34,145 nt of DNA from Actinomycetota bacterium (GTDB taxonomy: Bacteria; Actinomycetota; Acidimicrobiia; Acidimicrobiales; CADCSY01): positions 1-34,145 of the forward strand of contig JAHWJR010000004.1 in the NCBI GenBank assembly GCA_019348335.1, given 5' to 3'. A program made the position numbers and the translations under genes. The notes under the pieces are model-generated. The model was not told the DNA's origin and searched no databases. It saw only the letters and a list, made by a program, of their open reading frames with translations. How positions within the stretch are numbered: the stretch's first letter is position 1; every line of letters starts with the position of its first letter. This document shows positions 1,638 through 32,418 of the stretch, piece after piece.

Positions 1638-1682
1638 CGCCCCCCGTGATGCCGCCTGTGACCCCCCTGTGACCGCTGTGAC
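1632..1682 (+). repeat. Four direct copies of CTGTGAC, plus one CGTGATG variant, between the permease stop and the BY-kinase start
   Basis: CTGTGAC read at 1632-1638, 1656-1662, 1667-1673 and 1676-1682, with the variant at 1645-1651. The first copy contains the permease stop codon. Confidence 0.5.
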
Positions 1683-1699
1683 CTGACGTATGTACGGGC

Positions 1700-1717
1700 T
1701 CGGGCGAAAGCGCCCGA
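1700..1717 (+). terminator. Possible small intrinsic terminator or 5'-UTR hairpin (7-bp stem TCGGGCG/CGCCCGA, loop AAAG)
   Basis: Inverted repeat read directly and followed by TACGCTTTCCC. It lies only 13 nt before the GTG at 1731, so a role in the downstream leader is equally possible. Confidence 0.3.
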
Positions 1718-1730
1718 TACGCTTTCCCAC

Positions 1731-3518
1731 GTGAATCCCGACAAGGGTTCGGGCGACTTCGACCTCCGCCACTACCTGGCGGTCGTGCGCCGCCGGAAGC
1801 TGACCATCGTGCTCGCCGTGGTGGCCATGGTTGGCTCGGCCCTGGCGGTCTCGTTGCTGCAGACCCCGGTGTACCAGGCGACGTCCCAGATCGTGTTCCA
1901 GACCGGCTCGGCCGAGGAGATCTTCGCTCCCCAGGGCTTCCTCACCCCCACCCTGGTCGCCACCGAGATCGAGGTGATGAAGTCGCAGTCGGTGCGCGAC
2001 GCCGTCGCCAGCGAGATCGGCAGCGTGCCCGCCGTCGACATCGCCCCCGTGGCCAACACCAACGTGGTGGCCATCACCGCCGAGAGCACCGACCCGGCGG
2101 CGGCCGCCCGCACGGCCAACGCCTACGCCCAGATCTACACCAACACGCGGCGCCAGGCGCAGATCGACGACCTGCTCGAGGCCGGGCGCCAGGTGCAGGC
2201 CAAGGTCGACGAGCTCGACCAGCAGCTGGCCGAGGTCGAGCGGCCGCTCAACGAGCTCGACGCCCAGATCGCGGCCACCGTAGGGGCGGAGGAGCGCCGG
2301 CGGTTGGAGGATCAGCGGCGCGCCCTCCAGGGAGACATCGCCATCCAACGCCAGACCCTCCAGTCGCAGCGCTCCGACTACGCCGAGCAGCGGGACAAGC
2401 TGCAGCTGGCCAGCAGCCTGACCCAGACGGCCGGCGCCCAGGTCGTGACCGCGGCCACCGAGCCCACCACACCGGTGCGCCCCAAGCCGCTGCGCAACGC
2501 CGCCCTCGCCCTGGTGGCGGGTCTCGTGCTCGGGGTCGGGCTGGCCCTCCTGCGTGATCACCTCGACGACACGGTCACCTCCAAGGAGGATCTCGAGCGG
2601 GCCACGACCGGTCTCGACGTGCTCGCCCTCATCCCTGCCGTCCCGGGGTGGAGAGACCGGCAGAAGTCGTTCGTGGTGTCGCTCACCGAACCCAACTCGC
2701 CGCCGGCCGAGGCCTACCGGTCGCTGCGCACCGCCGTGCAGTTCATCGGCCTCAACCAACCGGTGCGGGTCATCCAGATGACCAGTCCCAACGCCTCGGA
2801 AGGCAAGACCACGACGCTGGCCAACCTGGCCGTGGCCCTGGCCAACGCCGGCCAGCGGGTCATCGTCGTGTGCTGCGACCTGCGCCGGCCCCGCATCCAC
2901 GAGTTCTTCGGGCTCGACAACGCCGCCGGCTTCACCTCCGTGCTGCTCGGCGAGCTGCCGCTCTCGGCGGCGCTGCAAACCGTGCCCGGCGCCGGCCGGC
3001 TGGCGCTCCTGGCGTCGGGGCCACCCCCGCCCAACCCCTCCGAGCTGCTGGCGTCCATGCGCACCAACGAGGTGTTCGCCGCGCTGCGGTCCGAGTGCGA
3101 CGTGGTCCTGGTCGACAGCCCGCCCGTGCTGCCGGTCACCGACGCCACCGTGCTGGCCCGCATGGTCGACGCCACCATCCTCGTGGGCACCGCCGGCCGC
3201 ACGACCCGCCGCGAGTACCACCGCTCAATCGAGCTGCTGCGCCAGGTCGAGGCGCCGATCGTGGGCACGGTGCTCAACGGCATCGAACCCGAGGGGATGT
3301 ACGGCTACGGCTACCGGTACTCGAGCGAGACGCCGGCGGACGGCGGCGGCGGCGGCAAGGCGCGGCGGAAGCGACCGGGCAAGGCGCCGGCCAACGGCAG
3401 GCCGAGCAACGGCACGGCGAGTGCGGGCGACGGCACGACGGGCGACGACGTCCCGGTCGCCACCGGCGCCGGCACCGACGGCCCCATCGTCGTCAGCAAC
3501 CCCACCGACACCCGGTAG
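1731..3518 (+). CDS. Polysaccharide co-polymerase / BY-family tyrosine autokinase (Wzz-like N-domain + CpsD-like P-loop kinase), copy 1
   Basis: N-terminal TM helix, then a coiled-coil periplasmic-type region and a second TM. Walker A SPNASEGKTTTLANLA, Walker A' VVCCDLRRPR, Walker B VVLVDSPPVLP. C-terminal Tyr cluster MYGYGYRY followed by a G/P/A-rich tail. Confidence 0.9.
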   Translation: MNPDKGSGDFDLRHYLAVVRRRKLTIVLAVVAMVGSALAVSLLQTPVYQATSQIVFQTGSAEEIFAPQGFLTPTLVATEIEVMKSQSVRDAVASEIGSVPAVDIAPVANTNVVAITAESTDPAAAARTANAYAQIYTNTRRQAQIDDLLEAGRQVQAKVDELDQQLAEVERPLNELDAQIAATVGAEERRRLEDQRRALQGDIAIQRQTLQSQRSDYAEQRDKLQLASSLTQTAGAQVVTAATEPTTPVRPKPLRNAALALVAGLVLGVGLALLRDHLDDTVTSKEDLERATTGLDVLALIPAVPGWRDRQKSFVVSLTEPNSPPAEAYRSLRTAVQFIGLNQPVRVIQMTSPNASEGKTTTLANLAVALANAGQRVIVVCCDLRRPRIHEFFGLDNAAGFTSVLLGELPLSAALQTVPGAGRLALLASGPPPPNPSELLASMRTNEVFAALRSECDVVLVDSPPVLPVTDATVLARMVDATILVGTAGRTTRREYHRSIELLRQVEAPIVGTVLNGIEPEGMYGYGYRYSSETPADGGGGGKARRKRPGKAPANGRPSNGTASAGDGTTGDDVPVATGAGTDGPIVVSNPTDTR

Positions 3519-3521
3519 GGC

Positions 3522-4481
3522 TCAGCGCGGTTGCTTCGAGCCGGCGGCCACCGCCCGCCGGGCCCGCCACCACGACCGCAGGCCCTGCGGCGCCTTCCAC
3601 GGCACCCACACCAGCCGGTACAGGTAGCCGGCCACCAGCGCGAGCCGGCTGCGCCGGGCCGGGGGGAACCACAGCCGGATGAACGACGGGGTGGGGACGA
3701 GCTCGCGCCCCACCAGCGCCGCCTTGGCCCGCAGGCCCCGGGCCGCCGCCACCTGCTCGAAGGGCCGGGCCAGGACCGCGGTGGACGACGACTGGAGGAA
3801 CAGCTCGACCGACGTATCCATCGGCACCCCCAGCCGCTCGCCCATCTCCTGGCCCTCGGGGAGCAGGCGCAGTCCCACACCGAAGCCGGGCAGCGCGTCG
3901 AGCTCCTCGGCGATGGCCAGGGCAGCCCGCCACTCGTCCTCGTCGAGCCGGGCCAGAGCCCGGCCCAGGTCCTCGATGGTCTTGCGCCGCCCCGACTCGG
4001 CGTGGAGAGCCACGTGCAGCGCCAGCACCGCCGGCGCCAGCACCTCGGCGGCGACGCCGCCCACCGTGGCCGGCCGGGTGTGGGCGGTGACCACCGCCCA
4101 GCAGCGCTCGGGGGACACCCCCACCTTGGCCGAGAGGATCTTGTGCAGGTCGACCGACGGTGAGCCCGGCCGGTCCCAGTTGTCGGCGTGGTCGGCCTGC
4201 TCGCCGGCCGCGCTTCCCGTGTAGCGGGGGGTGTAGCCGAGGCTGGCGAGGACCTCGCCGGCGGCACCGAAGCGCTCGGGCGCCACCAGCAGGTCGACGT
4301 CGGCGTAGTAGCGGGCCTGACCGTCGTCGTAGAGCCAGCGGGCGAAGGAGGCGCCCTTCAGCAGCACCGAGCGGATGCCGCGACGAGAGAGCGCGTCGAC
4401 GGCCTGACCGGCGACCTGGTCGACGGCCAGGCTCAGCATGGTCACGGCGAGTGGGTTCGTCGCCGGTTGCGGGGTTGCCAT
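3522..4481 (-). CDS. Uncharacterised nucleotidyltransferase (NTP_transf_5-like family)
   Basis: Motif IRSVLLKGASFARWLYDDGQARYYADVDLLVAPERF is typical of this family. Convergent with the BY-kinase with a 3-nt gap between stop codons. Downstream of the GT4 gene in the same orientation. The start could instead be the internal Met (MLSLAV). Confidence 0.7.
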   Translation of the reverse strand: MATPQPATNPLAVTMLSLAVDQVAGQAVDALSRRGIRSVLLKGASFARWLYDDGQARYYADVDLLVAPERFGAAGEVLASLGYTPRYTGSAAGEQADHADNWDRPGSPSVDLHKILSAKVGVSPERCWAVVTAHTRPATVGGVAAEVLAPAVLALHVALHAESGRRKTIEDLGRALARLDEDEWRAALAIAEELDALPGFGVGLRLLPEGQEMGERLGVPMDTSVELFLQSSSTAVLARPFEQVAAARGLRAKAALVGRELVPTPSFIRLWFPPARRSRLALVAGYLYRLVWVPWKAPQGLRSWWRARRAVAAGSKQPR

Positions 4482-4519: not shown

Positions 4520-5668
4520 TCAGCGCCTGGTGGTGGCCCGGTAGACCTCCAGCACCTGGGCGGCGACCACCTCGGGGGTGAAGTTCCGGGCCCGCCGGCG
4601 GGCGGCCTCGCCCAGCTGCTCCCGCAGGCCCGGGTCCGCCGCCAGGCGCCGGAGGGTGCCGGCCAGGGTCTCCACGTCACCCGTCGGGTACAGCAGCCCG
4701 TCGGAGCCGTCGGTGATGAGCTCGAGCGGCCCTCCAGCGGCGGCCGCCACCACCGCCAGGCCGGCGGCCATGCCCTCGACCACGACCTGGCCGAACCCCT
4801 CGGTGATCAGCGAGGCGTGCACGAGCACGTCCAGGCCCGCCAGGTCGGCGCTCACGTCTTCGCGGAAGCCGGTCAGCTCCACTCGGTCGGCCAGGCCCAG
4901 ACGAGCCACCTGCTGGCCGAGCGCCTCTTCGTAGGACGCCTCGCCGAACAGGGCTCCTCCGACCACCACCGCCTGCTCGGGACCTTCGGGGAAAGCGGCG
5001 GCGAAGGCGTCGAGGAACACGTGCTGGCCCTTGGACGGCGCCAGGCGGCCCACCATCCCGACCCGCAGCGGCGAGCCGGGGGGGCGGGACCTGGCCACGG
5101 CCTCCACGTGGACGGGTGAGGGGATGACCGTGATCGCCACCCCCGGCGAGTCGAGGCCCTCACGGGTGCTGTCCGAGTTGGCGATCACCGCCGCCGGCAG
5201 GTGGCGGACCATGGCCCGCACCATGCGGATGGCCGCCGGCGGCAGGTAGTCGTCGGCCAGGCGCTCCCGGGCGTGCCACACCACCGGCACCCGGGCCAGG
5301 TTCCCGGCGACGCTGCCGTAGACGTTGGCCTTGAGCGAGTTGGTGTGGACCAGGTCGGGGCGCAGGCGGCGCAGGCGCCGGGCGACCGTGGCCACGTAGT
5401 GGGCGGTGTGGCCCATGCTGGCTCCGGGCAGGCGGCCCGGTCGGACCCGGTCGCGGGACAGGCCCCGGGCTGCCTCCGCCATGGGCAGCACCTCGGTGGA
5501 GATCCCCGCCGCCTCCAACCGGGCGACGAGCGGACCGTCCTCGCCGAGCACGACGTGGGCGTCCACGTCCTCGGCCAGGGCGGGCAGCAGGCGAGCCATG
5601 GCGAGCTCCGCCCCCGACAGCTGGGCGCAGTGGTCCAGGTAGACCACGCGCAGTCGCCCCGATGTCAT
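4520..5668 (-). CDS. GT4-family glycosyltransferase
   Basis: N-terminus LRVVYLDHCAQLSGAELAMARLL and C-terminal half HASLITEGFGQVVVEGMAAGLAVVAAAAGG (E-x7-E region) fit the GT-B/GT4 fold. Confidence 0.85.
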   Translation of the reverse strand: MTSGRLRVVYLDHCAQLSGAELAMARLLPALAEDVDAHVVLGEDGPLVARLEAAGISTEVLPMAEAARGLSRDRVRPGRLPGASMGHTAHYVATVARRLRRLRPDLVHTNSLKANVYGSVAGNLARVPVVWHARERLADDYLPPAAIRMVRAMVRHLPAAVIANSDSTREGLDSPGVAITVIPSPVHVEAVARSRPPGSPLRVGMVGRLAPSKGQHVFLDAFAAAFPEGPEQAVVVGGALFGEASYEEALGQQVARLGLADRVELTGFREDVSADLAGLDVLVHASLITEGFGQVVVEGMAAGLAVVAAAAGGPLELITDGSDGLLYPTGDVETLAGTLRRLAADPGLREQLGEAARRRARNFTPEVVAAQVLEVYRATTRR

Positions 5669-5711: not shown

Positions 5712-7325
5712 ATGTCCCCAGCCGCGAGGCTGAAGCGAGCGCTCGAGACCGACTCGCGCTCCACCACGCTGGCGTTCACCGCCGGGTTGCTGGTGGCGCT
5801 GGCCGTGGGAGGCAGGCTCTTCTACCGCCTGGTCCAGTTGGACGAGGCCGCCTACCGGGCGCCATCCATCACGCTGTCCGCACTCCGCTCGCCCGGGCTC
5901 CTCGTCCTGGTCGTCGTTCCCGCAGCCGTGGTCGTGTGGCTGCGGCGGGGTCTGCGCTGGGGTGACGTGCCCGAGGGCCGCCTGGTGCGCCTGCTCCTAC
6001 TCGCCGCCGCCGGCTCCCTGGTCGTCTCGCTGGCCTTCTACGAGCCCAACTGGTTCTTCGGCCGGTCACATCTCGTCGACCGGGCGCTGCTCGTGGGTCT
6101 GTTCGCCCTCAGCATCTGGCGGCCCGTCGCCCTGGTCCCGTTCACGGTGCTGGCCGCGGTCGTCGCCTCCCAGTTCGCTGTCCCCCTCGGCCGCTACACG
6201 TGGAACGACAAGCGCCTGATCTTCGACGTCGTCATCCTGTTCTGCGTGGCGGCCGGGGCCGGCCTCCTCCGCCGCCGGGAAGGGGTGCGGGCGTTCGTCG
6301 GTGCTGCCTGCGTCCTCGTGGTGTCGTGGTACCTGGTGGCCGGGGTGGGCAAGATCGCCCTCGGTTGGCCAGGACGCGAGGAGCTGGCCAACATGACCCG
6401 ATCGGCTCATCTGGCCGGGTGGCTGACGGCGGGAACCGCCGATCGTGTGGCCGAGGTGGTGGCCAGCGTGAACTGGCTCTTGGTCCCGGCCGCCATCGTG
6501 GTGGAGGTAGCGGTCGTCCTCCTGCTGCTGGGGCGCCGGCCGGCGCTGGCGGTGTTGCTCGCCCTGCCCGGTCTGCACCTGCTGGTGTTCCTGTTGTCGG
6601 GCATCTTCTTCTGGAAGTGGATGGTGTTCGAGCTCGCCCTGCTCGTCTTCTTCCTCCGTTGCCACCGGGAGACCCTCGCCGGCTTCGGCCCCGCCCTGGT
6701 GGTGCTGGCCCTACCCGTCGCCGTCTTGTCGCCCCGCCTGTTCGGGGTGGCGACCCTGGCGTGGTACGACACGCCGTACTCGGTCAACCTGGAGCTCGAG
6801 GCGGTGGGGGAGTCGGGGACGGTGTACCGCGTCGACCGCGTCGACCTGGCGCCCTACGAGGTCCTCTTGGCCCAGGGTCGGCTGAGCTTTCTGGCCCAGC
6901 CGAAGGTGCTCGTGGCCAGTGCCGGCACCGCCCTCGACTGGAAGGTGGCCTCGGCCATCATCACCGCCAAGAGCCCCGCCGACCTCGCCCAGGCCGAAGC
7001 CGAGCTGGCGGTAAGTCACTACCGGGAGGACGACGCCCTCGTCTTCGACCGCTTCGTGCGGGAGCGCTTCGACCCATGGTCCGAGCCGCCACCGCTCGGG
7101 CCGCCGCACCACATCTGGACCGGCCGGGCACCGCCCATCCTGAACGTGCCGCCGACGGGGTTCGACGGGCAGGAGGAGGTGGCCGAGGTCCGGGTCAGGA
7201 TGCACAAGGTCTGGTGGGACGGCGACCGTTACCGGCCTCTTGCCGACTGTATTGTCCGAGTGGTGCCCATGGACCCGGCGGCGGGGCCCACCGACGTGGC
7301 CCCGGCCACCGCTTGCGCCCTCTAG
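5712..7325 (+). CDS. Polytopic membrane protein of unknown function with a soluble C-terminal domain of about 200 aa
   Basis: About 330 aa of repeated hydrophobic helices, then a hydrophilic domain (YDTPYSVNLELEAVGESGTVYRVDRVDLAPYEV...). I recognise no family motif. Coding-like G/C third-position bias. First gene of a + strand triplet. Confidence 0.6.
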   Translation: MSPAARLKRALETDSRSTTLAFTAGLLVALAVGGRLFYRLVQLDEAAYRAPSITLSALRSPGLLVLVVVPAAVVVWLRRGLRWGDVPEGRLVRLLLLAAAGSLVVSLAFYEPNWFFGRSHLVDRALLVGLFALSIWRPVALVPFTVLAAVVASQFAVPLGRYTWNDKRLIFDVVILFCVAAGAGLLRRREGVRAFVGAACVLVVSWYLVAGVGKIALGWPGREELANMTRSAHLAGWLTAGTADRVAEVVASVNWLLVPAAIVVEVAVVLLLLGRRPALAVLLALPGLHLLVFLLSGIFFWKWMVFELALLVFFLRCHRETLAGFGPALVVLALPVAVLSPRLFGVATLAWYDTPYSVNLELEAVGESGTVYRVDRVDLAPYEVLLAQGRLSFLAQPKVLVASAGTALDWKVASAIITAKSPADLAQAEAELAVSHYREDDALVFDRFVRERFDPWSEPPPLGPPHHIWTGRAPPILNVPPTGFDGQEEVAEVRVRMHKVWWDGDRYRPLADCIVRVVPMDPAAGPTDVAPATACAL

Positions 7326-7332
7326 GACGCCG

Positions 7333-8376
7333 GTGAACCGCCGCCGTTTCCTGACCGTGGCCGTGGGCGGCGCCGCCGCTGCCGCCGTCACCGTCCGCCT
7401 GCGCTCCGACGGAGCGTCGACCACCGCGACGAGCCCGCCATCGGCGAGCCCTGAATGTGCCCCGGCTGCCGTCCCTGGCGAGGACGCCCCGCTGCCCTAC
7501 GGCGGCGTGGCCACCCACCTGTGGTACTTCGAGACCCAGTACGGCGACACGGCCCGGGTGGCCGACCACCTCCGCCAGATCGAGGCCCCGATGGTCCGGG
7601 ACGAGTGGCTGATCCCCGAGGCGTGGCCGGAGTACCGCGGCCGCTATGGCGATGCGCTCGAGCTGGTGCACACGGTGGCGGGCACGACGTTCGTCATGGT
7701 CACGGGCCGGGCCACCGAGCCGATCGACCCCGTGCTCGACGAGATGGAGCCCTACGCCGAGCTGCTGGCCGGCATCGAGGGCCCCAATGAGTGGAACCTC
7801 CAGGACAGGCCTGGGTGGAGGGACGAGCTCAGCACCTACACCAAGGAGCTCTACGCCAAGGTCAGGGACCGGCCGGCGTTCGACCATGTTCCCGTGGTCG
7901 GCCCTTCCATCGGGCTGTCGAAGGATTCGGGCCCGCTGTTCGGGGACCACTCCGAGCACATGGACGTCGGCAACTTCCACTTCTACCAGCCGGCCACCCA
8001 GGTCGACCTCCGGTACTACCAGGCGTCGCTGGCCGGTGCCCGGGCCGTGTCCGGCACCAAGCCCATGGTGGCCACCGAGGTCAACGGCATCATCGGGGAC
8101 GGTTATCCCGGCACCGAGCAGGACCAGGCCGCCAACTACGAGTCGCTGATGAAGCTCTTCGGCGACGACGGCGTCCACCGGGGGTTCTGCTACCAGTTGC
8201 TGGACTTCTCCAGGCTCTCCAAGCCGCTGACCCACCGTGAGAACAACTTCGGGTGCTACCGGGTCGACTTCTCGGCCAAGCCGCTGGCGGCGTCGGTGCG
8301 CGAGGTCAACCGGAGGAACGACAGCCCCTTTCTGCTGGGGGACGGGCCCTGGTGCCCGCCGGCGCCGGCCCAGTGA
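7333..8376 (+). CDS. Tat-exported clan GH-A (TIM-barrel) glycoside hydrolase-like protein
   Basis: In-frame GTG at 7333, 8 nt after the upstream stop, gives VNRRRFLTVAVGGAAAAAV (twin-arginine signal). Candidate acid/base is GPNEWN, with an HFY strand motif, and candidate nucleophile is VATEVNG. The track ORF start at 7240 overlaps the upstream gene and is unlikely. Confidence 0.65.
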   Translation: MNRRRFLTVAVGGAAAAAVTVRLRSDGASTTATSPPSASPECAPAAVPGEDAPLPYGGVATHLWYFETQYGDTARVADHLRQIEAPMVRDEWLIPEAWPEYRGRYGDALELVHTVAGTTFVMVTGRATEPIDPVLDEMEPYAELLAGIEGPNEWNLQDRPGWRDELSTYTKELYAKVRDRPAFDHVPVVGPSIGLSKDSGPLFGDHSEHMDVGNFHFYQPATQVDLRYYQASLAGARAVSGTKPMVATEVNGIIGDGYPGTEQDQAANYESLMKLFGDDGVHRGFCYQLLDFSRLSKPLTHRENNFGCYRVDFSAKPLAASVREVNRRNDSPFLLGDGPWCPPAPAQ

Positions 8377-8420: not shown

Positions 8421-9512
8421 ATGGCGGAGATTGCCCTGACTCACGACTATCTGACCCAGCGAGGCGGAGCCGAACGGGTGGTGCTGAGCATGCTGTCGGG
8501 GTTTCCCGGCTCGCCGCTCTACACGTCCCTCTACGAGCCGTCGCTGACCTTCGAGGGCTTCGCCGACCACGACGTGCGCACCCTGTCATTGAACCGCGTT
8601 CGGCCGCTGCGGCGTGAGCACCGGTGGAGCCTGCCGCTGCTGGCTCCGAGCTTCTCCCGCCTGCACGTCGATGCCGACGTGGTGCTGTGCAGCTCCAGCG
8701 GCTGGGCCCACGGCGTGCAGACCGACGGCCGCAAGGTCGTCTACTGCCACAGCCCGGGGCGCTGGCTCTACCAGCGCGAGCGCTACCTGAGGGGTTCACC
8801 GCAGCCCGTGCGGTGGGCGGTGACCGCGCTGGCACCGTCCCTGGAGCGGTGGGACCGCGCCGCCGCCGCATCAGCTGACCGCTACGTCACCACCTCCCGG
8901 GCCGTGCAGCAACGGATCCAAGACGTCTACGGGATCGAGGCCAGCCTGGTGCCGCCGCCCCACACCATCGACACCGCCGGTGCGCAGGAGCCGGTCCCCG
9001 GCCTGGCGCCCGGGTTCGTGCTGTGTGTCGCCCGGCTCATGCCCTACAAGAACGTCGATGCGGTCGTCAGTGCCTTCCGTCGCCTGCCGGAGCACCGCCT
9101 GGTCGTGGTGGGCGAGGGACCTGAGCGACGACGGCTGGAGTCGCTGCTCGGTGCCAACACCACGTTGCTCGGTGTGGTGCCCGACCCCCAGGTCCGCTGG
9201 CTCTACGCCAACTGCGCCGGCCTAGTGGCCGCCTCCCACGAGGACTACGGCCTCACCCCGCTGGAGGCGGCGGCATTCGGCAAGCCCACTGCCGCCCTGC
9301 GGTGGGGGGGCTACCTCGACACCATGGACGAGGGCACCACCGCGGTGTTCTTCGACCGGCCCGAGCCCGAGGAGGTAGCGCCGGCGGTGCAGGCGCTGCT
9401 CGACCGGTCGTGGGACGCCTCGGCCATCCTCGCCCACGCCGGCTGTTTTGACGAGGCCGCGTTCATCACCCGCTTGCGCACGGTGGTGGCCGAGGAAGCG
9501 CAGCGCTGCTGA
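8421..9512 (+). CDS. GT4-family glycosyltransferase
   Basis: MAEIALTHDYLTQRGGAERVVLSM N-terminus, with C-terminal SHEDYGLTPLEAAAFGKPTAAL. AGGA lies about 9 nt upstream of the ATG. Confidence 0.85.
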   Translation: MAEIALTHDYLTQRGGAERVVLSMLSGFPGSPLYTSLYEPSLTFEGFADHDVRTLSLNRVRPLRREHRWSLPLLAPSFSRLHVDADVVLCSSSGWAHGVQTDGRKVVYCHSPGRWLYQRERYLRGSPQPVRWAVTALAPSLERWDRAAAASADRYVTTSRAVQQRIQDVYGIEASLVPPPHTIDTAGAQEPVPGLAPGFVLCVARLMPYKNVDAVVSAFRRLPEHRLVVVGEGPERRRLESLLGANTTLLGVVPDPQVRWLYANCAGLVAASHEDYGLTPLEAAAFGKPTAALRWGGYLDTMDEGTTAVFFDRPEPEEVAPAVQALLDRSWDASAILAHAGCFDEAAFITRLRTVVAEEAQRC

Positions 9513-9539
9513 GGCCGGCGGCGCCGGGCCCGGACGCGC

Positions 9540-9567
9540 CACTGGCGCCGTCGAAACGGCGCCAGTG
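9540..9567. terminator. Perfect 11-bp-stem hairpin (CACTGGCGCCG-TCGAAA-CGGCGCCAGTG) between convergent genes
   Basis: Inverted repeat read directly. It lies 28 nt after the GT4 stop on + and about 100 nt after the precursor ORF stop on -. No clear U-tract on either side. Confidence 0.55.
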
Positions 9568-9664
9568 CCAGGTTGCTCTTCCCTCTTCCGCCCCGGTGTC
9601 CGCCATTTTTCGGGACCAGTGCGCGACTACTCGACGTAGCCGAGGGATGGAAGGGGGAAGTCGA

Positions 9665-9760
9665 TCAGGAAGTCTCGCCCTGGGCGAGCACGACGATGGT
9701 CTGGGTGAGCTCTTCGACACGACCGATCTCGGTCATCTCGGGAGCTTCGTAGTCACGCAT
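9665..9760 (-). CDS. Candidate lasso-type RiPP precursor peptide, 31 aa: MRDYEAPEMTEIGRVEELTQ / TIVVLAQGETS
   Basis: Hand translation of the minus strand from ATG 9760 to TGA 9667-9665; not present in the ORF track. AAGGGA lies about 5 nt upstream of the ATG. The leader fits YxxPxLx3Gx5Tx (Y4, P7, M9, G13, T19). It sits immediately downstream of the Asn-synthetase-like gene. Confidence 0.6.
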   Translation of the reverse strand: MRDYEAPEMTEIGRVEELTQTIVVLAQGETS

Positions 9761-9842
9761 GTGGTCCCTTTCGGTTCGATTCACCAGGAAAGCGGACCCA
9801 GGTCCGGGCCCGAGGGCAAATTATCCCTTCTTGCGGCCACAG

Positions 9843-11054
9843 TCAAACATCCTCGACCGGGCCGGAGCTCGGGTCGGAAGGAGGCAACGGCTGTTCGCCG
9901 GTCAGCCACGCCCCCTGCAGCAGGGCGACGGCGCCGATCTTGGGCCGGGATGCCGACCACGCCGCCCGCAGGGCCATGGGATCGACCAGGTCCTCGTCGA
10001 CGCCGCGGCCGTCCCAGTGGGCGGCGAAGGCCCGGCTGGTCTCCCGCCAGAAGCCCCCGCCGAGGCTCGACTTGGCCTTGCGGGCGACCACCTCGCCCGG
10101 CAGCACGTCGGCGAACAACGCCCGCATGACCTCGGTCCGCTCGCCGTAGCCGAGCCCGCCCCCGTGGCGGGCGAGGGCGGCGAGGAACCGCGGGTCGAGG
10201 AATGGGTGCACGGCCCTGGCGCCGCAGTCCCGGGCCAGCACGTCGATGGTGGCCAGGCCGAGGGCCAGGCTGCGTCGCCGGGAGAGCCACGGCAGCCACC
10301 GGTCCCAACGTCGGGGTTGGCTGGCGACCTCGGCGGCCACGCCGGACTCCACCATCGCCCGGGGGCCGGGGCGGAGCCAGGGCAGGGGGAGGCGGTGCTG
10401 GCGGGCCTCCCACCTCCGCAGGGGCGGCGGTGCCGCGACCACGCCCAGGTCGATGAGATCGCGCCGACGGGGCCGCCGCCGCCGGCGGGCGACCGAGGAG
10501 AGGCCCGCCCATGGCCACGACCCGAACACGCCGTCGCCGTCATGGCCGGAGAGCAACACGCCGCCCGAGGCCTGTTCGAGCAGGACGTGCTCGTAGTGGA
10601 AGTACGGCGGCCACATGACCCCGTGACGACGCAGCAGGCGGGTGGCGAGCGGTCCCAGGTAGTCGAGCTCGTCCTCGACGTCGATGCGCACCCAGTCGTC
10701 GAGGCCGAGGTGGCCGATCACCCGCTCCTGCCAGCCCGACTCGTCGGCGTCGGCCACACCCGGGTAGCGCAGCGTCACCGGGACGGGCAGGGGCAGGCCT
10801 TCGCGGCGGGCGAGATCGGTGGCCACGGCCAGGACGGCGGAGGAGTCCCTGCCCCCCGAGAAGCCGGCGAAGCAGCGGCCGGTGACCAGCCAGGGGCGCA
10901 GGGCGTCGTCCAGGGCGGCCCTGGGCGACACGTCGGGCCCGACGGAGGGCAGTGGCGGGGTCGGCTGCTCGCCGAAGGGCTTGCCCGAGGCCAACTCCAG
11001 GGCCGTGGCCCGCACCGGCTTGGGCTCGATCGGGGTCCGGCCGGTCTGCGGCAC
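9843..11054 (-). CDS. Asparagine-synthetase-like ATP-dependent amidotransferase (lasso cyclase C-like) lacking the N-terminal glutaminase-like domain
   Basis: PP-loop FSGGRDSSAVLAVA and later Asn-synthase-like segments (HPFLDPRFL, SSLGGGFW). I prefer GTG 11054, preceded by GGGAGAG 10 nt upstream and 20 nt after the permease stop. The ATG at 11135 would overlap the permease gene by 61 nt. Confidence 0.75.
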   Translation of the reverse strand: MPQTGRTPIEPKPVRATALELASGKPFGEQPTPPLPSVGPDVSPRAALDDALRPWLVTGRCFAGFSGGRDSSAVLAVATDLARREGLPLPVPVTLRYPGVADADESGWQERVIGHLGLDDWVRIDVEDELDYLGPLATRLLRRHGVMWPPYFHYEHVLLEQASGGVLLSGHDGDGVFGSWPWAGLSSVARRRRRPRRRDLIDLGVVAAPPPLRRWEARQHRLPLPWLRPGPRAMVESGVAAEVASQPRRWDRWLPWLSRRRSLALGLATIDVLARDCGARAVHPFLDPRFLAALARHGGGLGYGERTEVMRALFADVLPGEVVARKAKSSLGGGFWRETSRAFAAHWDGRGVDEDLVDPMALRAAWSASRPKIGAVALLQGAWLTGEQPLPPSDPSSGPVEDV

Positions 11055-11074: not shown

Positions 11075-11916
11075 TCAGAACTGGGTGAGGGTGCCGCTGC
11101 GGCGGGCTCGGTCGACCGAGAGCCGGAACAACCACAGCGACAGCGGCAGTGACACGACGGCGAAGGCCACCAGGGCCACCAGCCGCCCGGTGGCCAGCTC
11201 TCCCCGGAGCAGCGCCGCCCGCAGCACGTCGACCCCCCAGGTGAAGGGCAGCAGGTCGGCCACCAGCCGGAGCGGGCCGGGCAGCAGGTCGATGGGGAAG
11301 TAGGCGCCGGCGAGCAGGCCGAGGGCGGTGGTCACCAGGCCGATGAGGGCGGTGACCTGCTTGACCACCACCGCGAACGAGGCCACGAGCACGCCGACGG
11401 CGGCGAAGGTGACCACCAGGGCCGGGAGCCCGACGACCAGACCGACGATGGAGCCCACACCCAGCTCGATGCGCAGACCGAAGAGCGAGGCGACCAGCAG
11501 CGTGACCAGCCCACCGATCAGCGCCCGCAGCAGCTCGAAGGTGGCGCTGCCCAGCACCACCGCCGACGGCGACACCGGGGAGGCCAGGAGGGTCTCGAAC
11601 GTGCCGCTGGTCTGTTCGGTGCGCAACTTCATGGAGAACGAGGTCAGGGCCGTCTGCACCATGCGCAGCACGATCAGCCCCACGGCGGCGTAGGAGAAGT
11701 AGCCCTTGCTCAGGTCGGCGTCGGCCGGCAGCCGGGAGGGCTCCACCAGTTCGGCGAGGAAGTAGAACAGGGCCAGGGCGAGAGGGACCACGGCCAGGTC
11801 GAGCACGAACTGGAGCCGGTACGAGCGGGCGATCTTCCAGTCCCGCCGCACGAAGGCCGGCGTCAACACCCTCCAGCGCGCCCGGAGCGGCGCCACGGGC
11901 ACCGCCGAGGTCTGGC

Positions 11917-11920
<4 letters not shown>
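11075..11920 (-). CDS. ABC-2 type transporter permease
   Basis: GTG 11920 overlaps the ATPase stop (GTGA). Product VSQTSAVPVAPLRARWRVLTPAFVRRDWKIARSYRLQFVLDL... has about 6 hydrophobic helices. The upstream part of the 496-aa track ORF is an alternative-frame read across the ATPase gene. Confidence 0.8.
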
Positions 11921-12672
<752 letters not shown>

Positions 12673-12713
12673 CGCCGGGCTTGGGTGCTCAGTTGCCACC
12701 GGAGGGCCCTGCC

Positions 12714-13577
12714 GTGGCGGCGGGCTCGGCTGTCCGGAAGCCCTCGACGGCACGGGCAGGATGCTACGGGCTGACGCTCACCGGGGAGGTGGTCGACCTG
12801 GCGGCGGCCATGATCGGGCCTCCGCTGCCCGGCTGGCCGGCGGTCGAGCTGGAGTGGACGTCGCTGCTCGCCGACCCGCCGGCCGCGGGATCGTTCGGCC
12901 CGTCCAGCGCCGTGCTGTCGCTCCTGAGCGGCGGCCACGCCGTGTTCGACCGCGAGCGACGGGTGGCCCGGTTCCACAAGCCCCGCCCGCCCGAGGGCCA
13001 CGAGCTGGCGCACCCGTGCCTGTCGGCGGTGGGGCTGGTCTTTGCCCGCTGGGACGGCCGGGTGGCGCTGCATGCCGGCGGCGTGGTGGTCGGCGGCCGG
13101 GCGTGGGGCGTGCTGGGGGCCCGGGAGGCGGGCAAGAGCACGACTCTGGCCCACCTGGCCCGCGCCGGCCATGGGGTGCTGTGCGACGACCTGCTGGTCA
13201 TCGACGACGGCCAGGCCTGCGCCGGCCCCCGCACCCTCGACCTGCGCCCGGAGACGGCTCGACGCCTCGAGGGTGAGGACCTGGTCGAGGTGCGCCAGGG
13301 CCAGCGACACCGGGTGCTGCTCCCGCCGGCGCCGGCCACCGTGCCGTTGGGCGGGTTCTTCGTGCTGGGCGTGGGCGACGAGGTCTCCGTCGAGCCGGTG
13401 CCCCCGGTGGAGCGGCTGCCGGCGCTGCAGCCCCATGTCACGTTGCAGCAGATCGGGCTCCCGGGCGCGGGGCTGCTGGAGCTGGTCGGGTTGCCCATGT
13501 GGCGGGTGCACCGCTCACGGGCGTGGGCCGACCTTCCCCGTCTGATCGAGCGGCTGGTGGCCACTGCCGCCGGCTGA
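12714..13577 (+). CDS. HPr-kinase-like P-loop protein (candidate RiPP precursor Ser kinase)
   Basis: LHAGGVVVGGRAWGVLGAREAGKSTTLAHLARAGHGVLCDDLLVID resembles the HPr kinase C-terminal P-loop domain. N-terminal YGLTLTGEVVDL matches the usual start of lasso-associated kinases. Start is uncertain: GTG 12714 is the nearest in-frame start upstream of that segment, and TTG 12681/12693 are also possible. Confidence 0.7.
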   Translation: MAAGSAVRKPSTARAGCYGLTLTGEVVDLAAAMIGPPLPGWPAVELEWTSLLADPPAAGSFGPSSAVLSLLSGGHAVFDRERRVARFHKPRPPEGHELAHPCLSAVGLVFARWDGRVALHAGGVVVGGRAWGVLGAREAGKSTTLAHLARAGHGVLCDDLLVIDDGQACAGPRTLDLRPETARRLEGEDLVEVRQGQRHRVLLPPAPATVPLGGFFVLGVGDEVSVEPVPPVERLPALQPHVTLQQIGLPGAGLLELVGLPMWRVHRSRAWADLPRLIERLVATAAG

Positions 13578-13970
13578 CGGGCTGCCGTTTCCGGCTCCTG
13601 CTGGCGGTGCCGGCCCGGGGGGTGGCCGCCGGCTCACCTCGATGTAACCGGCGGAGGCCTCGGCCGGCTCGCCGTCGAGCCAGGCGTGGGCCTTGAACCC
13701 CTCGCCGGGGGCGGTGACGCCGATGACCAGGTCGCGTGGGCGTCCGTGGGCGGCATCCCAGGTCTGCAACACCGCCGATCGGACCAGGCACGTGTCGCCT
13801 CGGGACGCCAGCACGGCCGCCACCCAGCGCCGGCACCCCCGCGGAAGGGGAGGCGGCGGGGGGACCACGAGGTGATCGATGCCGCCCGCGTCGAGGTCGG
13901 TGCGCACCTGGCGGGCGGTGCGGCGGGCCCACCACATCGCCCGCGCCGAGTTCAGGCCCTTGATCTTCAC
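13515..13970 (-). CDS. Transglutaminase-like cysteine protease (lasso leader peptidase B2-like)
   Basis: Cys in SRGDTCLVRSAVLQ and His/Asp in FKAHAWLDGE. GTG 13970 overlaps the B1 stop (GTGA). The P/G-rich C-terminal tail overlaps the 3' end of the convergent kinase gene by 63 nt. Confidence 0.75.
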   Translation of the reverse strand: MKIKGLNSARAMWWARRTARQVRTDLDAGGIDHLVVPPPPPLPRGCRRWVAAVLASRGDTCLVRSAVLQTWDAAHGRPRDLVIGVTAPGEGFKAHAWLDGEPAEASAGYIEVSRRPPPGPAPPAGAGNGSPSAGGSGHQPLDQTGKVGPRP

Positions 13971-14311
13971 GACTCGAGCAACCCCCGTTCGGCGAGGCTG
14001 GCCACGAAGACGTCGACGTCGCGCTCGGCTCGGGCCCGTTCCACGTCGAAGGTGTCGAGCAGGACCTGCACCAGCTGCGAGCGGGTGGCGCCCTCGACGA
14101 TGGCCGGCCACAGCGCGGCGCCGGCGGCGTTGACCGCCAGGTAGACCGAGCCCGCACGGTCGAGCACGACCACCTGCCCGTCGACCTCCCGCCAGTCGAC
14201 GGCATCGGCCCGCAGGGTGAGCACGCGGTCGGACTCCTCGACCTCGCCGCTCGCTGCGGATGGGGTGGGGTCGTCACGGTCGGCGGGCATGTGTCGATGG
14301 TAGAGGCACAC
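13967..14311 (-). CDS. PqqD-family RiPP recognition element protein (lasso B1-like)
   Basis: WREVDGQVVVLDRAGSVYLAVNAAGAALWPAIVEGATRSQLVQVLLDTFDVERARAERDVDVFVASLAERGLL follows the PqqD pattern. Start is GTG 14311 or ATG 14290. It lies 21-42 nt downstream of the Wzy-like gene. Confidence 0.8.
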   Translation of the reverse strand: MCLYHRHMPADRDDPTPSAASGEVEESDRVLTLRADAVDWREVDGQVVVLDRAGSVYLAVNAAGAALWPAIVEGATRSQLVQVLLDTFDVERARAERDVDVFVASLAERGLLES

Positions 14312-14332: not shown

Positions 14333-15784
14333 TTACGCCCGGCCGGCGCCCCTCCCGGCCACGGTGGAGCCGGCCTCGTCCTCTGGCTCGTCCGGCGGAC
14401 GGCCAGCGCCGGCCAGCGTCCACAACAGCATGCCGGGGAGGTTGCCGAACACGAAGCTGCCGGCGGCGGTGAGCACCAGCAGGGTGAGGAACCCGTACTC
14501 CGAAGGGCGCGAGTGGCGGGACAGCCAGAAGAGCGCCCAGCCCAGCAGGATCAGCCCCACCAGCCCCAGCTCGCCGAGCACGACCAGGTAGCCGTTGTCG
14601 AGGGTGGCGTCGCTCGCCGCCCGGCTGCCGGACGAGTACCGGCCCACGCCCACGCCGAAGGGAGACGTCAGGGAAGCGGCCCGCTCGACCAGGTCGAGGC
14701 GGGCGTTGTAGCTCTTGTCCTCGTCGAGGTTGGTGAACGTCTGCGCCCGTTCCACGACGATGTCGCCCTGGGGGGCGATGAGCACGAAGCCCATGACCAC
14801 GACGACGAAGGCCACGAGCTGGCGCGCCGGCCGGCCCCTGGTGGCGAGCACGCCCACGACCAGGGCCGCGGCCAGGCCCAGCCATACGCTGCGGGCCAGG
14901 GTCAACAGCAAAAACACGGCCGAGGACGACAGGGCCCAGCCCCGCAGCAGGGCGGACGGGCGCACCAGCTGGCGCTGGAAGACCATGAGCAGGATCACCA
15001 CGGCGCTGAGCGTCGCCGCCGTCTGGGGGGCGGGCAGGGTCCCGAAGGGACGGAAGTTCGCCTCACCGAAGGTGCCGGCGCTGCGCAGGCCCGAGCGGAA
15101 CAGCCAGGTGACGTCCCAAGGGAAGGCGATGAAGTACTGGAGGATGCCGTAGGTGGCGGCGATGGAGCCACAGATCACCGTGGCACGGGCGAACACCGAC
15201 AGCCCCCCGGAGATCCGCCGCACGCCGAAGGCGGCGAGGAGCGGAACGGCGAAGTTCAACCAACCGGCCAGGGCGACGAGGGGCGTGCCGATGGCGAGGC
15301 CGGCGCCGACGGTGGCCCAGATCAACAGCAGCGTGACCGCTCCCGGCTTGGGGCAGCGCAGCCCGTGCACGGCGAGGGGGATGGCGACGACGAAGGGGAA
15401 GATGGCGGCCATGTCCGCCGAGGGGTCGGCAGCGGGGAACACCCGTCGCAGCAGGGCGGAGAACACAAAGGCGCCCACGGTGGCGACGATGGAGGCGGAG
15501 GGATGCAGCCACGCCGCTGCGGCCAGCACCCCGGCCAACAGCAGCAGCACCACGTCACGGAACGCGAAGGCGGAGGTGAGCTGGGGCAGCAGGGCCCCGA
15601 GGACCACCGGGACGGCGATGGCCCCCAGCGTGATCCAGGCGCCGGCACTGACCCGTCGGGCACCACCGACGGGGCCCCGGGAGGGGCCGGAGCGAGATGG
15701 TGCACGCACCGGGACGGACACGGGAGGCGAAGGGGCGGCGACGCGACGGGAACGGCGATGACCCCGGCGAAGCGCCGGGGTCAT
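14333..15784 (-). CDS. O-antigen ligase / Wzy-like polymerase family membrane protein, copy 1
   Basis: About 10 or more TM helices with a loop motif LLLTLARSVWLGLAAALVVG of Wzy_C type. The ATG at 15784 is buried in a 13-bp hairpin, so GTG 15721 or 15709 are alternative starts. Confidence 0.75.
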   Translation of the reverse strand: MTPALRRGHRRSRRVAAPSPPVSVPVRAPSRSGPSRGPVGGARRVSAGAWITLGAIAVPVVLGALLPQLTSAFAFRDVVLLLLAGVLAAAAWLHPSASIVATVGAFVFSALLRRVFPAADPSADMAAIFPFVVAIPLAVHGLRCPKPGAVTLLLIWATVGAGLAIGTPLVALAGWLNFAVPLLAAFGVRRISGGLSVFARATVICGSIAATYGILQYFIAFPWDVTWLFRSGLRSAGTFGEANFRPFGTLPAPQTAATLSAVVILLMVFQRQLVRPSALLRGWALSSSAVFLLLTLARSVWLGLAAALVVGVLATRGRPARQLVAFVVVVMGFVLIAPQGDIVVERAQTFTNLDEDKSYNARLDLVERAASLTSPFGVGVGRYSSGSRAASDATLDNGYLVVLGELGLVGLILLGWALFWLSRHSRPSEYGFLTLLVLTAAGSFVFGNLPGMLLWTLAGAGRPPDEPEDEAGSTVAGRGAGRA

Positions 15785-15835: not shown

Positions 15836-16144
15836 TCAGCTGATGTCGACGTGCTGGCTCTGGGCGGCCCGGCGGTTGCGCTCGAGCAGCACCAGCACGG
15901 CACCGACGGCGAGCAGCCCGGCGCCGATCTGGGTGAGGGGCAGGCTCTCAGCGCCGGTCTTGGGCAGCTGGCCCTGCCTGGCCGGGACCTTGTTGACCTT
16001 GTTGACCTTCTCGACGGTCTTGACCACCTTGACGACGGTCACGTCGGGCTGGGGCGGGTACAGAGGGTCGTTCGCGCCCGCCTCAGCAGCACCTGTCAAG
16101 AACAGGCTCATGGCCGCAGCGACGACGGCAATCTTGCGAATCAT
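15836..16144 (-). CDS. Small secreted LPXTG-motif cell-wall-anchored protein (102 aa)
   Basis: Signal peptide MIRKIAVVAAAMSLFLTGAAEA. Sorting signal LPKTG, then hydrophobic AESLPLTQIGAGLLAVGAVLVLL and the charged tail ERNRRAA. GGGAGG lies 7 nt upstream of ATG 16144; the track start at 16147 is a TTG one codon upstream. Confidence 0.85.
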   Translation of the reverse strand: MIRKIAVVAAAMSLFLTGAAEAGANDPLYPPQPDVTVVKVVKTVEKVNKVNKVPARQGQLPKTGAESLPLTQIGAGLLAVGAVLVLLERNRRAAQSQHVDIS

Positions 16145-16273
16145 CAAAATACCTCCCGGTTGTCCACCGGCGTCGGGCGGTCAGAGTGTGTCTGGGCGTC
16201 TTCGATCAGCTTCCTGCGTGAGCAGTATGCCGGTTCTACCCCCGCGTGTCGAGTCTTTACGCCTGGTCGTCAC

Positions 16274-19201: not shown

Positions 19202-19274
19202 ACAACGCGCACTGGGCGACGGGCGTGGGCCATGCCGCAGATGGCAAGGCGCTCGCCGGTACCATCACCGGGCG

Positions 19275-21032: not shown

Positions 21033-21161
21033 CCCGGGCGGCGCCGAGACCTCCAGATGGTGAGTCTCGACCGTTACAGTGCGGTTGTGGGTGTGGGTGA
21101 CACGAAAGCTTCGACGCAGACGCCACCGCAGGCCAGCGTCGAAGAGCCGCAGAGCGCCGAA

Positions 21162-26611: not shown

Positions 26612-26614
26612 GAA

Positions 26615-28272: not shown

Positions 28273-28342
28273 CGAACGTGGTCCACTGGCGGTGCATCGA
28301 GGTGCGGGACCGGGAGAAACATTCTCTCCAGACTACAAACGG

Positions 28343-29212: not shown

Positions 29213-29213
29213 C

Positions 29214-31483: not shown

Positions 31484-31677
31484 CCCGTGCTCTCCTGAGG
31501 TCGGAAGGAGGGTAGTCCCGCGCTGATGGGATGCGGGAACGACCGTCACCGCAGGCCCGGTAGTGCCGCGCTACGGTCCGTCGCGAGCACGGCTGGCTAG
31601 CAGATCGGCCAGCGCGACGGAGGGGGAACTCCATCGGCGGATCGGATCGAGGGAAGACGGGGTCTCGGGTCCTGGCC

Positions 31678-32313: not shown

Positions 32314-32418
32314 GGGTTCGGTGCCCCATGCCGCCGGCAGGGCCGGCAGATCCGGGACCGTCTTGTCAGCACTACCTGCAGCGGCCAGATGCCTGCGGTC
32401 AGTTCGTGAGCGGAGTCG

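Follow-up and report, generated by a model that had tools for sequence, protein, structure and literature searches.

A short gene on the minus strand of contig JAHWJR010000004.1, from an Actinomycetota bacterium, encodes a 31-residue peptide that combines a leader typical of lasso peptide precursors with a core of only 11 residues. The gene (A, positions 9665 to 9760, 31 codons plus stop) was studied within a stretch of 34,145 nucleotides (nt), referred to here as the window. Its sequence and surroundings suggest that it is the cognate precursor of an actinobacterial kinase-associated lasso-type cluster, whose other predicted parts are a short asparagine synthase (Asn-synthase)-like enzyme (C), an ABC exporter, a kinase (K), a leader peptidase (B2), a PqqD-like protein (B1) and a more distant nucleotidyltransferase (N). 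The product is predicted to be an unthreaded phospho-lariat closed between Thr1 and Glu9, an assignment held with slightly better than even confidence. Since the gene map places the precursor among these genes, it is assigned to a lasso-type cluster of the RiPP class (peptides synthesised on ribosomes and modified post-translationally), located inside a predicted cell-envelope polysaccharide locus.

The precursor gene

Read from 9760 to 9668 in the ATG...TGA frame, the gene translates to MRDYEAPEMTEIGRVEELTQTIVVLAQGETS. Codons 1-20 (9701-9760) specify the leader, codons 21-31 (9668-9700) the core TIVVLAQGETS, and the stop codon occupies 9665-9667. Residues Y4, P7, M9, G13 and T19 fit the spacing of the leader pattern YxxPxLx3Gx5Tx, and the NCBIfam model NF033521 (lasso_leader_L3) matches residues 4-20 with 26.9 bits (cut-off 19, E 3.1e-6). 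A hidden Markov model (HMM) was also built from the leaders of about 150 precursors of related loci and run on the six-frame translation of the whole 34 kb. The precursor open reading frame (ORF) was its sole match in the window (E 2.5e-7), the runner-up segment reaching E 0.17. Together, the NF033521 score above cut-off and the E value of the leader HMM place the match beyond chance. No second leader-like ORF or rival precursor was found by this search in the 34-kb window, which disposes, for this stretch, of the longer rival that an initial annotation had named as a possible true ligand of B1. The 31-residue ORF, leader spacing and 11-residue core described in that annotation are borne out by the translation and the NF033521 match. 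The gene is not, as it had stated, unannotated: the peptide is identical to GenBank MBW3643989.1 (NCBI nr), labelled 'lasso RiPP family leader peptide-containing protein'.

The start codon lies 83 nt downstream of the Asn-synthase-like gene. A consensus scan of positions 9400-10000 reported no promoter or terminator sites, but comparative alignment and folding revealed both. Alignment of the upstream regions of 14 precursor copies from 13 related loci brings out a conserved arrangement of TTGAC, 16-17 nt and TAtAgT. In the window this promoter-like element spans 9818-9846 on the minus strand, with a -35 sequence TTGACT at 9841-9846, overlapping the stop codon of the C gene, and a -10 sequence ATAATT/TAATTT at about 9818-9824. 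A Shine-Dalgarno sequence, GAAAGGGA (9765-9772, minus strand), is located 4 nt ahead of the ATG, and its GAAAGG is conserved in relatives. On the other side of the gene, a 12-bp G+C-rich hairpin, CACUGGCGCCGU-UUCG-ACGGCGCCAGUG (9540-9567, minus strand), separates the precursor from a convergent GT4 glycosyltransferase gene. It folds with z = -2.7, equivalent hairpins of other sequence lie 3' of the precursor in relatives, and it is a probable terminator. A further element, GGGnCC...GGGCCC, lies between the -10 sequence and the Shine-Dalgarno (9775-9815, minus strand) and is conserved in the aligned relatives. It may form a stem-loop in the 5' untranslated region; the window copy alone does not fold significantly (z = -0.8).

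Conservation and core diversity

In about 20 related loci (numbered L001 and so on), a precursor homologue comes immediately behind the orthologous enzyme gene. The hosts of these loci are metagenome-assembled genomes (MAGs) of Acidimicrobiales or other Actinomycetota. Those in the same position are found in L001-L009, L024 and L161-L169. Independent gene callers place a gene of 31-36 codons immediately downstream of the C homologue in all nine close relatives, and in eight of these nine loci the convergent GT4 gene comes after it. For eight 31-codon homologues, the ratio of nonsynonymous to synonymous substitution rates (dN/dS) is 0.24 over the whole precursor, with 0.15 for the leader and 0.51 for the core. 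These values point to purifying selection on the precursor, and the conservation that the initial annotation had made a test of its proposal is observed, with E9 and the terminal Ser invariant among these eight.

In two MAGs, two or three paralogous whole clusters coexist, each with a different mini-core: YX2bin15 (L002, L004, L005) and 0707_bin12 (L001, L009). L002 has tandem precursors (6151-6246 and 6347-6442) whose leaders differ at amino-acid and synonymous sites and whose core DNA is identical, which indicates gene conversion or a very strong constraint on the core. Taken together, the expression signals, the terminator, the syntenic position, the purifying selection and the paralogous clusters leave hardly any doubt that the ORF is a real gene.

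Core changes among the eight homologues are nearly all exchanges of I, V and L, and T1, G8, E9, T10 and S11 (T21, G28, E29, T30 and S31 of the precursor) are invariant, giving the consensus T-[IV]3-[LV]-x-x-G-E-T-S. The clade of the window contains TIVVLAQGETS, TIVIVAQGETS, TIVVVARGETS, TIIVLAQGETS, TIIIVAQGETS, TIIVLEVGETS and TVVILEVGETS, a second set comprising TIIIVAQGEQAS and ALTIAATVAETS, and a third comprising EIVVAGDETAS, EIVVAGDETAGGS, EIVVAGDETSGGS, EIVVAGDETTGGGGGS and TVVVAGDETGGT. In the next clade, with an enzyme of about 53% identity, the cores are GDINVQVTGDAEEGGGGNS and GDISVSVTGDNETG10NS (G10 denoting ten Gly), together with [SNQ]TNLATVAGDD...(G/S/N)S and ETTVAAVDN[ED]DGGNS. 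A common design can be recognised: 4-8 beta-branched hydrophobic residues, usually a Gly, one to three acids, a Gly-rich linker of 0-10 residues and a terminal Ser. The last residue of 26 close-clade sequences is Ser, save in two that end with Thr. Cores are 11-16 residues long in 14 of 14 close loci, and the mini-core is a conserved trait and no one-off truncation.

The asparagine synthase-like enzyme and its partners

The C gene (9843-11054, minus strand) encodes 403 residues, its start codon having been placed with the help of a comparison with the homologues P0001 and P0004. PF00733, the synthetase/PP-loop domain, covers nearly the whole protein and the N-terminal glutaminase-like domain is absent. 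The 668-position NCBI lasso cyclase model NF033535 is matched at positions 262-376 only (19 bits, cut-off 525), and in a PDB profile search the alignment with AsnB and beta-lactam synthetase does not begin until about residue 203-217 of these proteins. An AlphaFold2 model shows one compact domain (pLDDT 93.1, pTM 0.90), which among PDB folds most resembles the synthetase half of TsnB9, of AsnB and of human ASNS; the PDB copy searched contains no lasso cyclase structure. To our knowledge, and judging from NCBIfam/TIGRFAM model lengths, every characterised lasso cyclase has two domains.

The short form is widespread. More than 775 homologues of 380-430 residues were found. Most come from Acidimicrobiales, Solirubrobacterales, Gaiellales and other Actinomycetota, and their records bear the name 'asparagine synthase C-terminal domain-containing' or '-related' protein. 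These called lengths are better evidence for a short enzyme than the open codons upstream of the SGG motif, which in about one third of the loci, where high-G+C frames are open by chance, are compatible with an N-terminal extension. Scanning metagenomes with C alone turned up no confirmed relative; with an alignment as query, relatives of at most 50% identity were found and no further close-clade loci. The close relatives were obtained by exact-protein look-ups. The PP-loop FSGGRDSS (SGGxDS) is intact and invariant, so ATP-dependent carboxylate activation is probably retained.

Across 160 loci C is accompanied by B1, B2, kinase and leader-bearing ORFs, an association which argues that C belongs to a RiPP pathway; the order of the genes, too, is conserved. 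A polysaccharide amidotransferase unrelated to the peptide was considered as its identity and rejected, given that over 100 loci in differing surroundings place C next to a leader-bearing ORF together with B1, B2 and K.

B1 (13967-14311, minus strand) is a PqqD-type RRE protein (PF05402, E 1.2e-14), which lasso PqqD chaperone models match at E 3.6e-11, under their 'exception' cut-offs. B2 (13515-13973, minus strand, about 152 residues) is a leader peptidase of the transglutaminase-core Cys protease type. It matches PF13471 with 33.7 bits (cut-off 26) and NF033537 (lasso_biosyn_B2) with a borderline 29.4 bits, just under the cut-off of 33, and its sequence shows the motifs of the Cys (DTCLVRS) and of the His (AHAW). 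The exporter consists of an ABC-2 type permease (11075-11920, minus strand; PF01061, E 2.7e-20) and an ATPase (11917-12753, minus strand; PF00005, E 1.9e-29), both syntenic in relatives; the ATPase coordinates are those of the longest ORF, relatives having about 250 residues.

The kinase gene (about 12732-13577, plus strand, about 281 codons) is convergent with B2 and overlaps its end. Its family matches TIGR04352 in 20 of 37 members, all under the cut-off (best E 2.9e-6). A phmmer search of the PDB with the single sequence gave chance matches only, and a profile search gave weak matches to HPr kinase at the P-loop. H114, G134, K135, D152 and D153 are invariant in 37 homologues, and S136 nearly so. 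The H-to-K spacing of 21 and the K-to-DD spacing of 17 are those of the characterised kinase BsfK, in which H148, K169, S170, D186 and D187 are catalytically important (PMC10368454). On these motifs, K is classed as a distant HprK relative. A K gene lies beside short C in 101 of the 112 loci with any match. Known lasso kinases phosphorylate the leader-bearing precursor, at the C-terminal Ser in paeninodin and pseudomycoidin (PMC6993621) and at Ser3 in Bsf (PMC10368454). The conserved terminal Ser/Thr fits modification of the paeninodin/pseudomycoidin type and, by analogy, phosphorylation of the C-terminal Ser is reasonably likely.

N (3522-4481, minus strand) is an NTP_transf_5 'uncharacterised nucleotidyltransferase' of the PsmN/BsfN/LppN family (PF14907, E 1.8e-23). 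It is conserved in nine loci (L001, L004-L009, L024 and L166), wherever the flanks reach. PsmN is needed to glycosylate the phosphate in pseudomycoidin (PMC6993621).

HMM matches and gene position uphold the proposal of the initial annotation that a real precursor with a canonical lasso leader lies in a cluster with B1, B2, kinase and Asn-synthase-like genes. That description had, however, overlooked the missing N-terminal domain of C, as well as the NTP_transf_5 gene and the surrounding polysaccharide locus.

Proposed pathway and product

A real and conserved gene, a family leader and the composition of the cluster are observed; from these we infer the cleavage site, the phosphorylation site, the ring and export. 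B1 would bind the YEAPxM...G...T leader, and the HprK-like kinase would phosphorylate the conserved C-terminal Ser (Ser31) on the leader-bearing peptide. The phosphate may be decorated further by N, glycosyltransferases and Wzy_C. B2 would then cut after Thr(-2)-Gln, that is, after Thr19-Gln20, releasing the core TIVVLAQGETS, which has E9 as its sole acid, followed by T10 and S11, and which lacks aromatic and bulky residues and Cys. The single-domain C would adenylate Glu9, and the new alpha-amine of Thr1 would close a 9-residue macrolactam. The expected product is a small hydrophobic lariat, or branched-cyclic peptide, with a phospho-Ser stub, presumably exported by the ABC-2 pump.

These steps differ in how well they are founded. 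Processing by B1 and B2 at T(-2) is very probable. The spacing from Y to T(-2) is 15 in each of 150 precursors, and other cut sites, after I22 or upstream at T10/E11, were rejected on account of this spacing and of the lack of a sensible acceptor in what would be left. The Thr1-Glu9 lactam itself stands at even chances. If the ring forms, it is very likely to be unthreaded, because only Thr10 and Ser11 lie beyond it and nothing can thread. Lasso peptides are described as 15-30 residues long with rings of 7-9 (Zyubko et al.), and the LassoPred survey gives solved lassos of 14-33 residues with a loop of at least three and a tail of at least two (PMC12214591). E9 falls among the usual acceptor positions 7, 8 and 9. 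Beyond the acceptor, lassos have at least five residues with a plug or disulfide, whereas the window core has two and no bulky residue or Cys. Thr1 is outside the usual small set of N-terminal residues (Gly, Ala, Ser, Cys), which is not an absolute rule of the class. The claim of the initial annotation that the core is too short for a threaded lasso is therefore sustained, with two residues after the acceptor against a minimum of five (PMC12214591). Its small head-to-side-chain macrolactam fares less evenly: the absence of threading stands, and the Thr1-Glu9 closure is a prediction set against relatives whose first acid lies anywhere from 7 to 10.

Substrates of the short-C family

The reaction attributed to C can be compared with what its homologues appear to act on. 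Beside short-C genes, 151 unique precursors were recovered. Seventy-four start with G, A, S or C, and in 55 of these residue 8 or 9 is the first acid, a pattern shared with canonical lassos, which supports a lactam between the N-terminus and Asp/Glu as the ancestral reaction of the family.

Very short cores are not confined to the clade of the window: 22 short-C cores have 13 residues or fewer, the independent lineages L069, L070, L102 and L103 among them. L069 (8034-8962) has tandem cores ESATSLPG, ESITSGPT and ESAPSTADSF, and L103 (7840-8354) has IDGSVGDEKP, AEGSKTVTTVK and DEGSAGDTVGDS. The cores of L070 (3380-3463) and L102 (2616-2702) are TAQFSEDVSE and GGQLTSLDEPT, respectively.

A large sister 'K...DG[FYLW]' group, with loci within L028-L160, follows another design. 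Lys stands six residues before Asp in 30 of 30 precursors, and the distance from T(-2) to Asp ranges from 8 to 14. Examples are L041 (8071-8193), L037 (8048-8176), L042 (8331-8456) and L065 (2384-2527), with cores such as TDKKYGPTDGYTLMG... and VCDKRLGGSDGFTFMG...C... and the L041 precursor TDKKYGPTDGYTLMGVAISNASP. Many of these precursors have one Cys just ahead of the Lys and one near the C-terminus. The pattern suggests a ring between Lys and Asp side chains, or trimming to Lys1, plus a disulfide; neither was found described in literature searches. On the sequences available, the chemistry of the short-C family is not securely 'lasso', and this lowers the confidence in any single product prediction.

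Alternative readings

Several observations weigh against the phospho-lariat. After the predicted cut, the first acid is at 7/8, 8, 9 or 10 according to the subgroup: D7/E8 in EIVVAGDET..., D8 in ETTVAAVD..., E9 in the type of the window, and E10 or D10 in ALTIAATVAETS, GDINVQVTGD and NTNLATVAGD. This drift of the acceptor is atypical of a cyclase with a fixed ring size and makes the ring chemistry uncertain, and we know of no lasso cyclase that forms a ring of 10. Residue 1 of the core also varies within the clade (T, E, A, G, Q, N, S), and a few short cores, such as L069 ESATSLPG and L103 AEGSKTVTTVK, have no acid at positions 7-10. In the sister group, the conserved spacing is Lys-x5-Asp and not N-terminus to Asp. 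As to the enzymes, C lacks the N-terminal domain and scores far under the NCBI lasso cyclase models, and the kinase assignment is made from sub-threshold HMM scores and motifs.

Several of these points would be accommodated by a linear peptide, phosphorylated and possibly glycosylated, resembling the linear polyphosphorylated peptides (LPPs), in which C couples Glu9 or the C-terminus to another amine or hydroxyl; ammonia, a sugar amine or a wall component are candidate amine partners. The acid at 7-10, the short cores with no mid-core acid and a C with no N-terminal domain that fails the lasso cyclase models are all compatible with such a product, as is the location of the cluster within, and partly in operon with, polysaccharide genes (Wzy_C, GT4s, WecA-like). 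Moreover, LPPs show that a kinase/N/RRE toolkit can give linear products (PMC13381572). However, LPP clusters are defined by the lack of a cyclase homologue and by an SpI-type peptidase, whereas here C always adjoins A and B2 is present. Many short-C loci also have textbook G1...D8/D9 cores, which argues that the family does make N-terminal lactams. A linear product is considered unlikely.

A wider interpretation, equally tentative, would embrace the whole family. Distinct from lasso cyclases, the short C enzymes could form a family of their own, peptide macrolactam synthetases that are guided by a leader and less strict in geometry. In the clade of the window, the products would then be unthreaded phospho-lariats (11-16 residues, rings of 7-10), and in the sister clades Lys(i)-Asp(i+6) side-chain rings. 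The NTP-transferase, glycosyltransferase and Wzy_C may elaborate the phospho-Ser, the peptide serving as primer, cap or anchor of a cell-surface glycan and not as a free antibiotic.

It is quite improbable that the ORF is a degenerate, decoy or regulatory leader peptide and that a longer precursor elsewhere in the genome is the real substrate of B1, B2 and C. The core is shorter than that of any characterised lasso, and the search covered one MAG contig of the genome. Against this stand the conserved T1, G8, E9, T10 and S11, the short cores in all of the roughly 20 related loci, the tandem L002 copies with identical cores, the conserved promoter and Shine-Dalgarno sequence, the single leader-like ORF in 34 kb, and the separate short precursor of each paralogous cluster within one MAG.

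Still less credence is given to another cyclisation, either head-to-tail between the Thr1 amine and the Ser11 carboxylate or an ester from Glu9 to a Thr/Ser hydroxyl. In ESATSLPG and ESITSGPT of L069 the only carboxylates are those of residue 1 and the C-terminus, and the E-T pair is conserved beside the C-terminus. Neither closure has a precedent among Asn-synthase-like RiPP enzymes, a phosphorylated C-terminal Ser, as in known relatives, would normally keep a free carboxylate, and most cores of the family fit closure from the N-terminus to Asp/Glu.

The least probable product is a true threaded lasso, obtained through another processing site that gives a longer core or through a phospho-glycosyl group acting as plug: a C-terminal phosphate and sugar have been proposed to lock the pseudomycoidin tail (PMC6993621), and K and N genes are also present here, but a ring at E9 leaves two residues where five are the minimum, an upstream cut puts no Asp/Glu at 7-9 of a core starting with Gly, Ala or Ser (GRVEELTQ... 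has E4/E5 only), and the distance of 15 from Y to T(-2) holds in all 150 precursors.

Relationship to known systems

The closest characterised systems of the proposed phospho-lariat pathway are those of pseudomycoidin (psmA-C-K-B1-B2-N-D, Bacillus pseudomycoides) and paeninodin (Paenibacillus dendritiformis), both phosphorylated lassos of Bacillota. They share with the window a precursor, an Asn-synthase homologue, an HprK-like kinase, split B1/B2, NTP_transf_5 and an ABC exporter (PMC6993621), as well as the C-terminal Ser, which is the phospho-acceptor there, and a tail with no bulky plug. Pseudomycoidin purified in a form that lacks the modifications by kinase and NTP-transferase is branched-cyclic and unthreaded (PMC6993621), which provides a partial precedent for unthreaded output of lasso machinery. 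For this reason, the initial annotation went too far in calling the predicted output undescribed for this enzyme family. The two systems nevertheless differ from the window in several respects. Their cores are of about 23-25 residues with Ala1 and about 15 residues after the ring, against 11 residues, Thr1 and two residues here, and the window has a single-domain 403-residue cyclase, a two-gene ABC-2 pump and a convergently encoded kinase. The host belongs to Actinomycetota and the leader is of the YxxP type, whereas paeninodins belong to Bacillota and have a WxxP leader with a cognate RRE clade.

It has been reported that paeninodin-like clusters and LPPs occur in capsular polysaccharide loci of Bacilli and are co-expressed with exopolysaccharide genes, that both are restricted to Bacillota and that their function is unknown (Popov et al. 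2026, PMC13381572). The association of the paeninodin/pseudomycoidin type with a polysaccharide locus thus recurs in the window, in Actinomycetota. LPPs are non-lasso products, as is predicted here. Their clusters have no Asn-synthase homologue, an SpI-type signal peptidase and precursors of 35-200 residues phosphorylated at Ser3 (PMC13381572), whereas the window has C and B2. No signal-peptidase domain was found among the window proteins scanned for domains.

Outside Bacillota, a lasso-type cluster that also combines an HprK-like kinase with an NTP-transferase is Bsf of Bradymonas sediminis (BsfA/K/N/B1/B2/C/D). The BsfK motif H-x20-K-S-x15-D-D has the same spacing as the kinase of the window. 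In contrast, BsfK targets Ser3, the core is long and ends in Asp, and the leader has Ile and not Thr at -2. The bsf cluster is silent in the laboratory and no mature product was obtained (PMC10368454).

Canonical class II lassos, such as lariatin, microcin J25 and fusilassin, share the YxxPxLx3Gx5Tx leader, the B1/B2 logic and an acceptor at 9. They differ from the window in having 14-33 residues, at least five of them after the acceptor, steric plugs and two-domain cyclases. The predicted lasso locus of Jiangella (PMC13608877), which corresponds to L062, has a short-C homologue 44% identical to that of the window, B1, B2 and a leader ending in ...GSVRELTL, all of which are shared. Its cores, unlike that of the window, have 25-28 residues, an A1...D9 ring and aromatics, so that a lasso is plausible. 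It is known by prediction only, and the RODEO classifier scored its precursors negative (PMC13608877). A tblastn search found no kinase at the equivalent locus L062.

New features here are the cores of 11-16 residues, a first residue and an acceptor position that vary and are non-canonical, and the single-domain enzyme. No relevant description of truncated lasso cyclases, mini-core lassos or Lys-linked Asn-synthase-type macrolactams was found in literature searches.

Genomic context

The gene map was drawn from third-position G+C profiles and domain searches, the window having a G+C content of 70%. The GT4 glycosyltransferase gene convergent with the precursor (8421-9512, plus strand; PF00534, PF13439) is a conserved neighbour, found in this orientation in L161-L163 and L165-L169 too, and is putatively linked to the peptide. 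Next to it, two genes at 5712-7325 and 7240-8376 (both plus strand) encode proteins that match no Pfam or NCBIfam model. They are a 537-residue polytopic membrane protein and a 378-residue protein, respectively, and both are conserved neighbours; the membrane protein recurs beside the precursor/GT4 pair in L002, L004, L163-L165 and L167. Another GT4 gene (4520-5668, minus strand) lies between them and N, and beyond N is a Wzz/BY-kinase gene (1662-3518, plus strand).

On the other side of the cluster, a membrane protein of the Wzy_C O-antigen ligase/polymerase family (14333-15784, minus strand; PF04932, E 9.8e-12) is encoded directly upstream of B1. The same position is found in L001-L004 and L161, with a 4-nt overlap with B1 in L161. 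Wzy_C is thus a probable operon partner of B1 and would, by this arrangement, be linked to the peptide. In L161 (25-2986), an overlapping SpoIIE/PP2C phosphatase gene precedes Wzy_C. The arrangement of these genes suggests a shared transcript for the RiPP genes and those for envelope glycans and phospho-turnover.

Just upstream of Wzy_C is a small LPXTG protein of 114 residues with a sortase anchor (15836-16180, minus strand; PF00746, TIGR01167), followed by a 996-residue protein with a WecA/MraY-type polyprenyl-phosphate sugar-phosphate transferase domain and DUF4012 (16274-19264, minus strand; PF00953). From 21000 to 34145 the G+C content falls from about 0.72-0.77 to 0.60-0.69. The genes of this region include GT4s, five methyltransferases (two of the FkbM type), a hexapeptide acyltransferase, an NAD-dependent epimerase/dehydratase and a sulfotransferase (27343-28332, minus strand), and it is probably a variable glycan-tailoring module.

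Implications

Threading is what defines lasso peptides. In the window, a complete and conserved lasso-type toolkit appears to serve cores that cannot thread, with a cyclase that lacks the N-terminal domain. Genome-mining filters that expect cores of at least 12 residues and an acceptor at 7-9, for example the LassoPred input filter, would miss or reject the mini-core clade.

If the phospho-lariat is the true product, the range of products recognised for lasso machinery would become wider. The enzyme would be a naturally minimal macrolactam synthetase, attractive for the engineering of peptide cyclisation and as a soluble or crystallisable 'C'. Moreover, the association of phosphorylated lasso-type peptides with capsule or exopolysaccharide loci, so far reported in Bacilli, would extend to deep-branching Actinomycetota, indicating a conserved envelope-related role.

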